Source: a virus
Lineage: Duplodnaviria; Heunggongvirae; Uroviricota; Caudoviricetes
Length of the DNA: 64,000 nucleotides
IMG/VR virus record: IMGVR_UViG_3300033075_001920
Strand: one strand, 5' to 3'
This document shows, piece by piece, positions 30,944 through 50,692 of the stretch. The notes under the pieces are model-generated. The model was given only the letters and a program-made list of their open reading frames with translations, did no database searches and was not told the origin of the DNA. Position 1 is the first letter of the stretch. Each line of letters begins with the position of its first letter. The position numbers and the translations under genes are program-made.

Positions 30944-31179
30944 ATTGTAGCGCATATCCTGCAAATGTTGTTTATGAATATAGCAAATTTGTTGTAAATA
31001 CTTTATTAATCATAATTATACAGAAGTGTCCCAGCTTTGTTACGGGGACAGAACTGTTGTAAATATGAATACAAAATTGTAAGATATCGTTTCCTGGTTC
31101 ATCGGCTTCACAAGGAAGTCTCCACAGGCACACCGCGGGTACACTCCCGCTGCAATCAGAGAACTGATGTGCAAATCTA
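30944..31179 (-). ncRNA. TnpB/Cas12f-like guide-RNA scaffold copy C with degenerate mini-array
   Basis: homolog of 45387-45522 and 47319-47427; promoter TAGATTTG; TTTACAAC repeat ends at 31056 and 30991. Confidence 0.7.
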
Positions 31180-45143: not shown

Positions 45144-45224
45144 TCACGACACAATAAACCCTGATTCGCATGTAAAACATGGGAATTGCTCGGGGGTGTG
45201 TCGCTGAATAAGATTTAAAATCAC
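45144..45224 (-). CDS. leader peptide 1: MILNLIQRHTPEQFPCFTCESGFIVS (GTG start)
   Basis: codons 7-20 use only Q,R,H,T,P,E,F,C, the amino acids of the downstream tRNAs. Confidence 0.85.
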   Translation of the reverse strand: MILNLIQRHTPEQFPCFTCESGFIVS

Positions 45225-45333
45225 GTTGCAATTATAAAGAAAAAAATAGAATAAACAAATTAATATTTTTGGAATGGGAAAATATAAACCAATACCTTTA
45301 GAGAATATGAAATATTACAGTTTTTGCGAGACT

Positions 45334-45522
45334 GTTGTATATGCCTTTCAAATTGAGGTTATTCACAACATGAATCGCAGATAGAAGTTGTAAAAGCCAT
45401 TAGTGATAACTGGGCTGTGTTGTAAGGCATTATTTCCTGATTCATCGGCTTCGCAAGGAAGACTCCACAGGCGCATCGCGGGTACACTCCCGCTGAAATC
45501 AGAGAACTGATGTGCAAATATA
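45334..45522 (-). ncRNA. TnpB/Cas12f-like guide-RNA scaffold copy B with mini-array
   Basis: promoter TATATTTG; scaffold to 45387; spacer 45354-45386; repeat ATTTGAAAGGCATATACAAC 45334-45353. Confidence 0.8.
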
Positions 45523-45563
45523 GGAAAATTCTTGAATTCTGTTAGTAATTTAGAAAAAAATAT

Positions 45564-45571
45564 TATATTTG
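45564..45571 (+). promoter_or_regulatory. -7 promoter element of Leu/Ser/Tyr tRNA operon
   Basis: TATATTTG. Confidence 0.75.
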
Positions 45572-45579
45572 CACTCCCG

Positions 45580-45642
45580 ATGAGACAACAATTATCACTC
45601 AGTTATTCGTACCTATCAGCCTTTGCTGATCAGCTCGGATAA
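45580..45642 (+). CDS. leader peptide 2: MRQQLSLSYSYLSAFADQLG
   Basis: codons 5-13 use only L,S,Y, the amino acids of the downstream tRNAs. Confidence 0.88.
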   Translation: MRQQLSLSYSYLSAFADQLG

Positions 45643-45667
45643 CCTATGTGATTAAAATCTTGCATAG

Positions 45668-45695
45668 AAACCCCGGCTGAAAAGTCGGGGTTTTT
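45668..45695 (+). terminator. attenuator terminator of Leu/Ser/Tyr operon
   Basis: AAACCCCGGCT-GAAA-AGTCGGGGTTTTT. Confidence 0.85.
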
Positions 45696-45705
45696 GTGTT
45701 TATAT

Positions 45706-45779
45706 ACCCCTTTAGCCCAACGGAAGGAGGCGCGTGCCTTAGGAGCATGACAGTATCGGTTCGAATCCGATAGGGGGTA
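45706..45779 (+). tRNA. trnL: tRNA-Leu (TAG), short variable loop
   Basis: loop CTTAGGA, A73, 5-nt variable region. Confidence 0.8.
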
Positions 45780-45815
45780 CAAAAAAAAGTACACTGTACA
45801 AAAAGTGTACAAAAT

Positions 45816-45889
45816 GCACCCGTAGTCCAACGGCAGGAGACGAAGAGTTTAAGCCTCTGACAGTGTGGGTTCGAATCCCTCCGGGTGTA
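45816..45889 (+). tRNA. trnL: tRNA-Leu (TAA), short variable loop
   Basis: loop TTTAAGC, A73, 5-nt variable region. Confidence 0.78.
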
Positions 45890-45894
45890 CAAAT

Positions 45895-45985
45895 GGAAAG
45901 TGAAGCAGCTGCATTGGAGCGGCGATCAGTCTTGAAAACTGAGTCAGGTTTTGCCTGTGGGGATCGGGTCCTCCTCTTTCCGCCA
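45895..45985 (+). tRNA. trnS: tRNA-Ser (TGA), atypical T-loop
   Basis: loop CTTGAAA, long variable arm, G73, CCA. Confidence 0.82.
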
Positions 45986-45990
45986 GTTAT

Positions 45991-46079
45991 GGAAGATAGT
46001 CAGATATGGCTCGCTGAGTCTGTTTGCTAAACAGATCTGCTTTAAAGGAGCAGTGAGGGTTCGAATCCCTTGTCTTCCG
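45991..46079 (+). tRNA. trnS: tRNA-Ser (GCT)
   Basis: loop TTGCTAA, long variable arm. Confidence 0.88.
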
Positions 46080-46087
46080 CTAAATAT

Positions 46088-46173
46088 GGGTGTGCTGTCG
46101 CGATTGGTGGAGCGGCGCCGGTCTGTAAAATCGGTACTTTGATACGCTGTGGGTTCGAATCCTACCACACCCT
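46088..46173 (+). tRNA. trnY: tRNA-Tyr (GTA)
   Basis: loop CTGTAAA, long variable arm. Confidence 0.88.
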
Positions 46174-46214
46174 CTAAATAAACATAAATATACAAAAGTG
46201 TGTATATTTACATT

Positions 46215-46820
46215 TTAATGTATGTTTGGCAGTATATTCAACTCCGAGTATTCCTTTCCGAAATTTTCAATCGCAGCTTGATTATATGCCATTGCAGCAT
46301 CTTCCTCGTTTATAAAATAACCCAGATGCTTTTTAACGTAATCTAATTTTATATAAGCAGCCCATTTTTTTGCAAAATTACTCCAGCTAACTCCCTTGTA
46401 AACACTGGATGGCTCATCGCCGTTTGCTGTTTTGGGTTTCTTCTCCTTGTAATGTGCTTTACGATGATCAATGATTTCAATATTGTCTCGTCTTAAATTG
46501 AGCGGGTTTTTATCCTTATAATGGATAATAGATTTACCTTCAATATCCATCATTAATTTTGCTACCGGCGCAACAACCCTCTTACCTTGTTTTGAAATCC
46601 ACAATGCCATTACTATACCCCTCTTTTTATCAAAGAAGATTGCCTGCTGTCTTAAAATTTCATAATCTAAATCATCAAATTCAATGATTTTACCGCAGGT
46701 TGTTTTGACCCATCTGAATTGATTCGCAAATATCCGCATTGCTTTTATTGCATCATTTTTTGAGATATTTTCGGTTTTCTTTCCAAAAATGTCGTGCAAT
46801 ATTTCAATTTCGGTTTTCAT
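46215..46820 (-). CDS. HNH-AP2 homing-endonuclease-like protein
   Basis: IHYKDKNPLNLRRDNI (degenerate HNH) plus SSVYKGVSW...HLGYF..EEDAAMAYNQAA AP2 domain. Confidence 0.85.
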   Translation of the reverse strand: MKTEIEILHDIFGKKTENISKNDAIKAMRIFANQFRWVKTTCGKIIEFDDLDYEILRQQAIFFDKKRGIVMALWISKQGKRVVAPVAKLMMDIEGKSIIHYKDKNPLNLRRDNIEIIDHRKAHYKEKKPKTANGDEPSSVYKGVSWSNFAKKWAAYIKLDYVKKHLGYFINEEDAAMAYNQAAIENFGKEYSELNILPNIH

Positions 46821-47073
46821 CTGTTTTGCAAAGTAAATCTATTTAAAATAAATTGTTGTTATTGTTTAGTTTGAAAATGTCGAACTTTAAAATGTTTTCC
46901 GGAATAAGGGTTTATGAAAGAGCAAATACTATATGTTACTGAGGCGGGAGTTCTTATGTTAAATGTATGTGATATTGTTTACGGAATACAATATTTTGAG
47001 TATGAAACGCTGCAAAACCAAGTTTATTGGCTGCATTGTCCTGTTTGGTTTTATGATAGATATAATTAAATCT

Positions 47074-47265
47074 AAACCGAGAACTATAAAAATATTAGTA
47101 GTGTCTCAGTTTGAAATTTTAGACCGTTTGGTTTTTTATATCCTTACAAATTTACCGTACAAGAAAGAACTATGTATTTAATATTCATCTTTTTATAAGT
47201 GTATGGTTTTTTTGTATCCTTACAAATAACCATACACATAGGTCAAACCGAGAACTATAAAAATA
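47074..47265. repeat. AT-rich non-coding region with nested direct repeats
   Basis: AAACCGAGAACTATAAAAATA at 47074 and 47245; TATCCTTACAAAT at 47139 and 47215. Confidence 0.85.
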
Positions 47266-47294
47266 ATTTTAATTTATTTTCCCGGTTTTTTGTG

Positions 47295-47427
47295 TACATT
47301 TGCCTTGTTCTTTGAACCCAGCGGGAGTGTACCCGCGATGCGCCTGTGGAGTCTTCCTTGCGAAGCCGATGAATCAGGAAATAATGCCTTACAACACCGC
47401 CCAGTTATTACTAAAGGCTTTTACAAC
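47295..47427 (+). ncRNA. TnpB/Cas12f-like guide-RNA scaffold copy A
   Basis: promoter TACATTTG; 109 nt nearly identical to reverse complement of 45387-45495. Confidence 0.8.
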
Positions 47428-47530
47428 TAGTACGAAATTGTCGATTTCTTTAGTTTGAAAGGTATTTACAACTCGTATGAGTATCATAAATTTGAAAGGC
47501 AATACAACATTCCCTCCAGCTCACATCTTT
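47411..47530 (+). CRISPR. minimal CRISPR-like array with short repeats
   Basis: CTAAAGGCTTTTACAAC / GTTTGAAAGGTATTTACAAC (47453-72) / ATTTGAAAGGCAATACAAC (47490-508) separated by unique 25- and 17-nt spacers. Confidence 0.65.
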
Positions 47531-47558
47531 CCGTTATGCACCTAGTTGTAAAACTTAA

Positions 47559-50474
47559 GTGGATAATACGCATTTATCCATTTTAGCTTTGCCGAACCAT
47601 ATGAAAAATATATTTTTAATGCTGTTCTGCCTTTTGTCTCAGATCAGCTTCGGACAAACTCCGACCGACACCATCTATCTGAATGGGAAGACAAAAACGA
47701 CATTCAGCCTTGGCAAAACAATACCATTTTATTACATCGATTGCATTCAGTTCACAACAAGAACCACTTCCAGATCTATTTCGGGAGTTGGAACAGTAGT
47801 TTTTAAATCCGATGGCTCAGGCTACATTACGCCTTCATCAGCCGCTTATACTGCCAAATGGGATTACTATGTTTCAAATTGTGGATATGAAAAAAGGCAT
47901 CTTTTTTTTATGCAGAAGCCTACCATCCCGCCCCCGCCGGCCAATAAAGTACCTATACCAATATCAGATGCTTATACGATAGATCAAGATGCTACACTTT
48001 CTGAAAATATACTTATCAATGATTCAGATCCGGATTCAGATCCAATAACAGTTGCCTCATTTGCAATAAACGGAATTATTTATTCTCCCGGCACTCAGGT
48101 TATCCCATCGGTTGGAACTATAACCATTTTATCTTCCGGAGCACTATCTTTTTTAAATGCCGCAGGTATAACAGGAGATATTCCTATTATCAGTTATCTT
48201 ATCAAAGACAGTAAAGGAGCGCAAGCTGCATCATCTGTTTTAATTTCTGTAAAATCCAAACCGACCCTTCCGCCCAATACATTTGTTCTGGATAAAACAT
48301 CTACTACTTCAGCAGGAGTATACATCGGCAATAAACTAATCAGAACCCTTTGGAACAATGTTTCTAAACCGGCAGGCACTTATACCGTATCCTGGGATGG
48401 AAAAGACGATGCAGGGAACACAGCTCCTCCGGGAGGAAAAATAGCAGTTCTTTACCATCAGATGACCTACCAGTGGAAGGCAAGTATTGGAAATTCTTCC
48501 AGAGTGGATACAGGTTCTCATAAGCTCAGAGGGTTACGCACCCCGTTTGCTGGAGTTGAGGCTGGTGGCTACATTTATATATGTAAAGGTAACACAGAAG
48601 GTAACAGCCCGATATTCAAAATAGCCAAGTCGGATCCTCAATATATGTATTCTCTCCGTGAATCAGGTTGTGGGGATTGCGATATGCAAACTGAGTTTGT
48701 AGCCTCGGATGGTAATTTGGTTTATTGGGCAGGTTATGACGCTTGGACCGGTTACTGGCCTGTTACCAATAAAGTTCCACCGGATACCAATTCAAGAGTA
48801 AAGTCGATTATCTATGCGACCAAGGTAAGCGATGATCAGGATTATACATTTCCATCCGGAAAAAAGACAAAAGCTTCCCTTGCGGCATGTAATACATATT
48901 CCGGCATTGGTATAGTGCTGGACGATGACCTTGCCCGCCCTACGGGTCTTGCTGTCATGTCCACGGGGAATTATCTGTATTCTACCCATCTGGGCAAGTC
49001 GTGGGTTAGGTGCTATAATAAGACTACCGGTTCGCTGATAAGAACAATGGTCAATACTTTATCCAATATTGCAATCGATGGCAATTATCTGTATGGAATA
49101 AGCGGATCAACCATTAAAAAATATGCAATTAATTCAGATGGCACCCTGACAGATCAGAATGTAAATATTGCCATGCAAAGTCCTTTAAATATCTCTGTAA
49201 AAAATGGCACAATCATGGTCATAGAGGCAGCAACACAGCAGGTCTTAGCATACAATACCTCGGGTGTACTTCAATGGACTCTTGGTCAAAGCGGAGGATA
49301 TAAATCTAACCCTTATGTCAGCGCAGACAGGTTTAACTTCATAGAATTTAATAGAGATGAAAAAAAAGGATTTATTATACCTCAGGCAGATGGTTCGTTT
49401 TGGGTAGGAGATGCAGGCAATTGCAGAACTATCCATTTTGCAGCCGACAGAACGTATATTGAAAATGTAGCATATCTTCCTACCAATTATAATTGTGGAG
49501 TTGATCAGAATGCCCCTACAAGGGTATTTGCCGGATTTTTAGAATACGATGGACCTACCGGAACACTGGTAGCTAATTGGAGCGCAAACCTAACAGCCAA
49601 CTACAATTACATTGATAATCGTGCAATTTTTTCAAGCATACAAACCATATTAGGCAGAACCTATGGATTGATACTTTATTATCCAAATCCACCTTCTTCT
49701 GAAAATGTCGCTCAGGAATTAGTAGAACTTACATCCACGGGAATCAGGTTTACCGGCATTCGAAGGAATAATGACAATCGCTATGTATTTGACAAAAACG
49801 GCGATTTGCTGCATCCGGAAAGCGATTACTACGCATTATCGGGCACCGGAAAAATCATCCGGGAAAGATTTACAGGAATTAATACTTCAGGTAATCCTAC
49901 CTTTTCAGCTCCGGAAACCTTGTACACCTTTCCACTTGGTAAAAATTATCCTTCCTATGCTTCTTTGAACTATGGCACTAATGCCAAAGGAATTGTATTT
50001 TCGGATCATTATAATAATACCGGTTATCACTTAGGACGCATTGAAAACGGACAATGGATATGGATGACATGCAAATCTACTTCCAGAAACTATACTGGGG
50101 ATATGCCTACGGATGGCACCTTTGATTGCGGGAATGGAACACAGTATGCAGGATGGAATCTTTATAACATAGATTCATTTTTTGTCTGGTCTTTTCATGG
50201 AGAATTTTGGAAAAACTCTCAAACCAATATATGGAATCTGTTTCATGAGGATGGTTTAATGCTTATGCAGCTGGGTAAAACCGGTCCGCAGGCAGACATC
50301 TATAATGGAGGACATGATGCACCCAGGGAAGCTGCTGGAAACATGCTTGGAGGCCAGATTGTTAAAATCGGAAACGATTACTGGATCTTCTATTGCGATG
50401 AATCCAGACATGGTGCTATACATTACTTTAGGATATCCGGGGCAAACACGGTAAAAATAATTTATTTAAAATAA
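47559..50474 (+). CDS. secreted multidomain protein (signal peptide, Big/cadherin-like Ig, FlgD-Ig, beta-propeller); start likely 47601
   Basis: MKNIFLMLFCLLSQISFGQ; SDAYTIDQD..NILINDSDPD; LIRTL..YTVSWDGKDDAG. Confidence 0.82.
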   Translation: MDNTHLSILALPNHMKNIFLMLFCLLSQISFGQTPTDTIYLNGKTKTTFSLGKTIPFYYIDCIQFTTRTTSRSISGVGTVVFKSDGSGYITPSSAAYTAKWDYYVSNCGYEKRHLFFMQKPTIPPPPANKVPIPISDAYTIDQDATLSENILINDSDPDSDPITVASFAINGIIYSPGTQVIPSVGTITILSSGALSFLNAAGITGDIPIISYLIKDSKGAQAASSVLISVKSKPTLPPNTFVLDKTSTTSAGVYIGNKLIRTLWNNVSKPAGTYTVSWDGKDDAGNTAPPGGKIAVLYHQMTYQWKASIGNSSRVDTGSHKLRGLRTPFAGVEAGGYIYICKGNTEGNSPIFKIAKSDPQYMYSLRESGCGDCDMQTEFVASDGNLVYWAGYDAWTGYWPVTNKVPPDTNSRVKSIIYATKVSDDQDYTFPSGKKTKASLAACNTYSGIGIVLDDDLARPTGLAVMSTGNYLYSTHLGKSWVRCYNKTTGSLIRTMVNTLSNIAIDGNYLYGISGSTIKKYAINSDGTLTDQNVNIAMQSPLNISVKNGTIMVIEAATQQVLAYNTSGVLQWTLGQSGGYKSNPYVSADRFNFIEFNRDEKKGFIIPQADGSFWVGDAGNCRTIHFAADRTYIENVAYLPTNYNCGVDQNAPTRVFAGFLEYDGPTGTLVANWSANLTANYNYIDNRAIFSSIQTILGRTYGLILYYPNPPSSENVAQELVELTSTGIRFTGIRRNNDNRYVFDKNGDLLHPESDYYALSGTGKIIRERFTGINTSGNPTFSAPETLYTFPLGKNYPSYASLNYGTNAKGIVFSDHYNNTGYHLGRIENGQWIWMTCKSTSRNYTGDMPTDGTFDCGNGTQYAGWNLYNIDSFFVWSFHGEFWKNSQTNIWNLFHEDGLMLMQLGKTGPQADIYNGGHDAPREAAGNMLGGQIVKIGNDYWIFYCDESRHGAIHYFRISGANTVKIIYLK

Positions 50475-50655: not shown

Positions 50656-50692
50656 GCACTTATGTTCTTTGACATTTAAATAGTTTCATTAC

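Follow-up and report, generated by a model that had tools for sequence, protein, structure and literature searches.

Results

Locus B, on the minus strand of the window, most probably encodes the guide RNA of a TnpB-type, TranC-like effector that is provided in trans, a reading to which we assign a probability of roughly 0.6. The window, that is, the whole stretch of 64,000 nucleotides analysed here, is part of a large phage (contig of 132,469 bases) whose hosts are probably Bacteroidota-type bacteria, and 23 tRNA genes and a tmRNA were detected in it by ARAGORN. Three cassettes combining a tracrRNA with a mini-array were found in the window, of which locus B is one, with its own putative promoter. 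The others are a sister cassette (47295-47553, plus strand; the 47-kb copy), comprising promoter, scaffold, fused repeat, two further repeats and a partial one, and a diverged third cassette (30944-31179, minus strand; the 31-kb copy), in which the anti-repeat and the distal repeat are altered together.

Organization of Locus B

Locus B begins with the promoter element TAnnTTTG (45515-45522), which we take to be a Bacteroidota-type promoter -7 element. It is also found ahead of the other two copies and of the related phage locus L003, and on its own the motif is common, with 29 occurrences in the window vs 18 expected. The 5' leader hairpin (45498-45511) has exactly the sequence found in the 31-kb copy and holds a variant of the GTTCTTTGA element, which is also found after the promoter in effector-bearing phage cassettes. 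A separate GTTCTTTGA element was observed at 50664-50672 of the window, after a T-run and before the third tRNA cluster, and is possibly an antitermination signal. The leader is followed by a stem-loop with the loop AGUGUA (45478-45493), by the omegaRNA core GCCTGTGGAG ... GATGAATCAGGAA (45434-45472), which is homologous to the RNA at the 3' ends of IS605-type tnpB genes, and by an anti-repeat (45419-45431) complementary to the 3' half of the repeat. A linker and a fused degenerate first repeat (45387-45418, the repeat being 45402-45387) then form a natural single-guide junction, which also occurs in loci L050, L045 and L044.

The array proper consists of spacer 1 (45370-45386; 17 nt, with boundaries taken from the repeats of the ortholog L003), a full 36-nt CRISPR repeat (45334-45369) identical at 33/36 positions to the repeat of the phage Cas12f-like locus L022, spacer 2 (45301-45333), whose 3' limit is uncertain, and a 10-nt segment (45291-45300) that, judging from its letters, is probably the remnant of a terminal repeat and retains only the part pairing with the anti-repeat. 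The initial annotation had proposed a spacer/repeat/spacer layout downstream of the scaffold; this layout is present, and its boundaries were redrawn according to the full-length repeats of L003, by which the supposed 33-nt spacer resolves into the 17-nt spacer (45386-45370) and the 5' half of the 36-nt repeat (45369-45334). Locus B is codirectional with the Glu-Pro-Cys operon and points away from the Leu-Ser-Tyr operon. Between 45300 and 45091 no terminator was found before the one belonging to the tRNA-Glu leader itself (45117-45091), and the B transcript may therefore use this terminator as well and read into the tRNA-Glu leader or operon.

Copies of the Cassette and Their Setting

As initially annotated, 45387-45495 (minus strand) and 47319-47427 (plus strand) are reverse complements over 109 nt with 3 substitutions, and the identity ends directly after the common ...TTTTACAAC. 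The first 79 nt of the two copies are identical, and the inverted repeat extends to 122 nt (94%) once the patchy 5' identity is counted. An independent Logan unitig equals window positions 45466-47348 base for base, ending 30 nt inside both copies, and because it matches exactly across this segment both copy junctions are real. A third, more diverged scaffold copy lies at 31056-31170 (minus strand), 14 kb away. Locus B is a mosaic, with a leader equal to that of the 31-kb copy and a body equal to that of the 47-kb copy, and this mosaic, taken with the arrangement of L003 described below, suggests an inverted duplication together with exchange between copies.

The gene placed by the initial annotation inside the inverted repeat as HNH-AP2 (ORF 46215-46820) does look HNH-AP2-like by eye, but gave no Pfam match at E<=0.01. 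Within the same segment, 45895-45981 is a tRNA-like gene, probably Ser, which was missed by ARAGORN and has a weak match to the Rfam tRNA clan. Upstream of the 47-kb cassette, a palindromic operator-like element occurs in two copies (47130-47153 and 47206-47231); it is kept upstream of the L003 cassette (L003 220-245) and is absent at locus B. About 3 kb past the window end (L010 5338-5586), a protein of 82 amino acids carries the Pfam Acb2/Tad1 hairpin (PF24729) and is possibly an anti-defence protein.

Spacer Turnover in a Related Phage

A metagenome scan retrieved the related phage locus L003, in which the same Leu-operon tRNA leader is followed by the scaffold at approximately 85% identity. 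Its array holds six spacers of 25-31 nt between 36-nt repeats, with periods of 66, 66, and 67, and all of these spacers are unlike those of the window. Together with the fused repeat, the full repeat and the remnant of locus B, this difference in spacers identifies a CRISPR array, and the constant scaffold with variable guides that had been noted between two loci of one genome is thereby supported between phages as well. The comparison across related phages also bears on the idea of a fixed structural RNA, for which conserved downstream spacers had been anticipated: none were seen, and this idea is refuted, as all spacers of L003 differ beside a conserved scaffold. Ahead of the L003 scaffold, the sequence corresponds to that preceding the 47-kb copy (77% over 266 nt). 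For the L003 phage, no contig of greater length exists. Five further related phages, found via an AAA ATPase, contained neither the scaffold nor PF07282; they are distant, and their loci are devoid of the tRNA cluster.

Pairing and Predicted Fold

Of the 13 anti-repeat positions of locus B, 10 pair with the repeat's 3' half, as in a tracrRNA. GCC stands opposite GGC in locus B and ACC opposite GGT in L003, while in the 31-kb copy both the anti-repeat and the repeat sides are changed again. The consensus fold contains three compensated pairs between the anti-repeat and the fused first repeat, a covariation drawn from only four scaffold sequences. The loop UGUA and the repeat-end UACA are complementary and invariant in these four copies, so that their pairing is a prediction, covariation being seen only in the analogous cassettes L024, L062, and L063, where the loop and the repeat end vary together. 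A pseudoknot occupies this position, between the 5' loop and the repeat end, in TnpB/Cas12 guides (PMC10097598). Repeat columns 1-9 and 18-36 are conserved at 93-94%, and the middle at 60%. The scaffold of locus B alone folds no better than shuffled sequences (z -0.18).

Origin of the Scaffold

A covariance model of the four scaffolds matched the tail of the tnpB gene P0170 with an E value of 5e-5, and the alignment scored above all 300 shuffles with z 6.7-9. Pairwise scores of the scaffold against three tnpB-end RNAs exceeded those of all 300 shuffles (z 5-9), and against four phage tracrRNAs of other, Cas12f-family lineages they were at chance level (z -0.1 to 1.7). The best match of the model to the cassettes of Bacteroidota-phage Cas12f-like loci (P0001 family) had an E value of 0.035, and only layout and repeat are common to both. 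The scaffold core occurs at IS-type right ends and, in L030, directly after a real tnpB, and looser scaffold patterns also reached such ends (L020, L021). Thus, the scaffold of locus B has the hairpin and core of a TnpB omegaRNA. Its placement is another one: a promoter and a tRNA leader lie upstream and an anti-repeat with an array at the 3' end, with neither a tnpB upstream nor a transposon right end at the locus.

P0170-like TnpBs were present in 11/401 Bacteroidota genomes, and among the closest of these, two have loci that carry the same core at the tail, without arrays. The scaffold with an array was absent from the 151 Bacteroidota genomes searched; the sole match in them (L043) lay inside an enzyme gene and was rejected, as was a match on a Hymenobacter plasmid inside a gene. 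Exact scaffold patterns had zero matches in viral contigs or species genomes, and the looser ones also gave chance matches inside genes (L001, L002, L004, L018, L019). No Rfam family was found for the scaffold; in particular, RAGATH-18 (RF03064) had no match at E<=10 over 45200-47700 or at E<=0.5 in L003. Reading the scaffold as a peptide revealed no parent protein. On a 217-kb phage contig, a stand-alone core of the omegaRNA type without an array was observed (L026 720-776), and no PF07282 was found on that contig.

Searches for Effector and Targets

A tblastn search with six queries, in which the positive control was found, detected no TnpB/Cas12f in the window and the next 19 kb (83 of 132 kb), and the gene tables of the same DNA listed no TnpB family. 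No RuvC effector was thus found at the locus within the 83 kb read of the 132,469-base contig, and the effector is probably encoded elsewhere, since no matching nuclease occurs in these 83 kb. Among the 240 TnpB homologues listed as top matches, none lay on a contig of 132,469 bases, which is weak evidence. At first, the Cas12f-like family that uses the same repeat was favoured as partner, and it was then dropped; as its tracr core is unrelated in sequence, it is probably not the partner. No large ORF that could be a cas13b candidate was found near the arrays.

The spacer search that the initial annotation had called for gave no protospacers in the collected loci, phages, plasmids, and 301 Bacteroidota genomes, spacer 1 being too short for a firm test. 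Spacer matches were at chance level or missing, and none started at the guide 5' end of spacer 2. In the genomes searched, none of the guides matched a host promoter.

Repeat Family and Related Phage Cassettes

The repeat is of a Bacteroidota family that occurs both in a Cas13b array and in several CRISPR loci of phages with TnpB/Cas12f. A Cas13b gene (NF038190, E 2e-76) with a closely similar 36-nt repeat was found in 1/401 Bacteroidota genomes. In a Bacteroidota MAG, a Cas13b gene with array (L042 1365-3036) has lysozyme- and Rz-like genes as neighbours and is possibly prophage-borne, and a second array was observed on another contig.

The layout of locus B (promoter, leader, loop hairpin, anti-repeat, fused half repeat, and array) adjoins intact TnpB/Cas12f-like genes in other phages. 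In large phages, tracr and array cassettes with the same promoter and a GTTCTTTGAA-like leader accompany at least three TnpB/Cas12f lineages that are unrelated to one another (L022, L024, L044, L048, L050, L051, L052, L062, L063), most of them with the VI-B-type repeat family. Cassettes far from a nuclease also occur: in G006 a second tracr-array cassette lies approximately 24 kb from the nuclease gene. A 476-aa Cas12f-like gene (L016 250-1925, L015 690-1443) has its array upstream and a separate tracr-array cassette approximately 24 kb off, and its fused single-guide RNA overlaps the gene's own 3' end. In G411 (L045 3600-4150), a tracr and array cassette was observed on a 91-kb contig (31% complete) on which no TnpB was found.

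Discussion

Proposed Mechanism

Locus B would be a self-promoted guide-RNA gene with type V geometry. If expressed and processed as proposed, a single transcript would comprise a tracrRNA that descends from the 5' portion of a TnpB omegaRNA of IS605 type, the anti-repeat, the fused repeat, and a two-spacer array. The anti-repeat would pair with the 3' half of each repeat and the 5' stem-loop with the last bases of the repeat, leaving as guide the 16-20 nt after each repeat; ISDra2 TnpB functions with a 16-nt guide (PMC10097598). A TnpB-type protein from elsewhere, encoded in the rest of the phage genome, in a host transposon or in a co-infecting element, would bind this RNA and be aimed at DNA, most likely that of rival phages or mobile elements. 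Action in trans has a precedent in stand-alone omegaRNAs (PMC10691335). Host Cas1-Cas2 probably adds new spacers, because the repeats follow the 36+30 pattern seen in VI-B arrays of Bacteroidota; the supply of Cas1-Cas2 in trans is a plausible route by analogy with Flavobacterium (F.) columnare, where II-C Cas1-Cas2 acts in trans to insert spacers into a VI-B array (PMC8092290). The fullest form of this reading, which we put forward tentatively, would be an RNA-only CRISPR in a nuclease-free phage, in which host Cas1-Cas2 fills an array of VI-B format and the omegaRNA-like tracrRNA captures the TnpB of a host transposon and directs it against rival DNA.

Alternative Readings

The cassettes might instead be a relic, in which the nuclease of a TnpB-CRISPR (TranC-like) system was lost and three decaying cassettes were kept alike by recombination. 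This is rather unlikely, although the negative searches for effector and spacer targets and the mosaic structure of locus B speak for it, and all three window arrays are more eroded than that of L003, showing half repeats and spacer lengths of 17, 9, and 17 nt where L003 has intact 30-nt units. However, the promoter, both predicted pseudoknot partners, and the anti-repeat are intact in every copy, the changes are compensatory, and the erosion leaves the repeat 3' half and, in locus B, a guide that is long enough for use. Such erosion is moreover found beside intact nucleases, whose cassettes also carry shortened units (periods 40, 54, and 58).

It is less probable still that the RNA acts as a decoy or regulator, titrating a TnpB-type protein of the host or a rival or steering its non-cutting binding, in the manner of vsgRNAs and Cracr RNAs. 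Three promoted copies with short guides and no effector nearby are consistent with such a role, Bacteroidota genomes do carry TnpBs of the same lineage, of which two also have this core at their tail, and precedents exist for Cas9 and Cas12a (10.64898/2026.06.01.729453; 10.1101/2024.10.29.618823). The normal array of six different spacers in the ortholog, however, fits immunity better, and the guides gave no match to a host promoter in the genomes searched.

Use of the array by a host Cas13b (type VI-B), with the scaffold incidental, would explain the closely similar repeat beside a Cas13b gene in a Bacteroidota genome, but is very improbable given that the inner repeat stem is eroded (-3.9 kcal/mol vs -8.7 to -10.6 in intact arrays) and that the repeat part pairing with the anti-repeat is retained and covaries. 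Perfect identity over 79 nt could support homologous recombination, and the assembly breaks at both copies; nevertheless, that the inverted repeat is kept to flip the 1.8-kb tRNA/HNH segment, or that the RNA is a fixed structural one, can hardly be credited when the downstream sequence of L003 is entirely different, a third copy lies 14 kb off, neither a recombinase nor a short inversion site was seen, and inversion between the two scaffolds would not, from the gene order, yield the arrangement of L003.

Comparison With Known Systems

Locus B would work in the manner of a TranC or small type V guide module. Phage arrays without effectors have been described (PMC7162821), and our literature search found no report of an effector-less tracrRNA derived from an IS605 omegaRNA with a turning-over array. 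Locus B would represent a TnpB omegaRNA recast as the tracrRNA of an array with Cas13b-type repeats, with no neighbouring protein.

Type VI-B arrays (PMC8092290) share with locus B the 36-nt repeat, the 30-nt spacers, and the conserved GTTG...CAAC ends; locus B differs from them in the absence of cas13b, in its eroded inner repeat stem, and in a tracrRNA predicted to pair with the repeat. The vsgRNAs and Cracr RNAs (10.64898/2026.06.01.729453; 10.1101/2024.10.29.618823) are likewise guide-like RNAs of phages without an adjacent effector, but act on Cas9, Cas12a or class 1 complexes, TnpB being unmentioned, whereas the spacers of locus B vary as in an array. The Cas12f-like/TnpB loci of Bacteroidota jumbo phages (L022, L050, L015/L016, L051, L052; V-F/V-U in PMC7162821) resemble locus B in repeat family (up to 33/36), promoter, leader, loop hairpin, anti-repeat, fused repeat, and far-off extra cassettes, while their tracr core is unrelated in sequence. 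Several unrelated TnpB/Cas12f lineages of Bacteroidota phages use one repeat format.

The IS605 omegaRNA (ISDra2 structure, PMC10097598; stand-alone, PMC10691335) has a homologous 5' hairpin and core, a 3'-terminal guide, and, as predicted for locus B, a pseudoknot of the 5' loop with the last bases before the guide. Locus B is distinguished by its own promoter without an upstream tnpB and by an anti-repeat and an array of changing spacers in place of the terminal hairpin or transposon end. In TranC (Jin et al., 2025, via PMC13639567 and 10.64898/2026.03.27.714800) and Cas12n, the right-end RNA of TnpB is likewise split into tracrRNA and crRNA, the arrays are short, and one TranC member is phage-borne. 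Their effector lies beside the array, whereas locus B has none in 83 kb, its cassette occurs three times, and assignment to a clade would require the protein; because no effector was found within the DNA read, locus B is not filed as a TranC or small type V module. If the remaining genome is without tnpB, the phage would reprogram a host transposon nuclease by RNA alone, of which we found no description; if tnpB is present there, locus B would be part of a further small type V system in a phage, one whose guide cassettes are scattered. Together with the systems compared here, it would form a natural series in which to ask how CRISPR effectors arise from transposon nucleases and from what source effector-only phage systems obtain their spacers.
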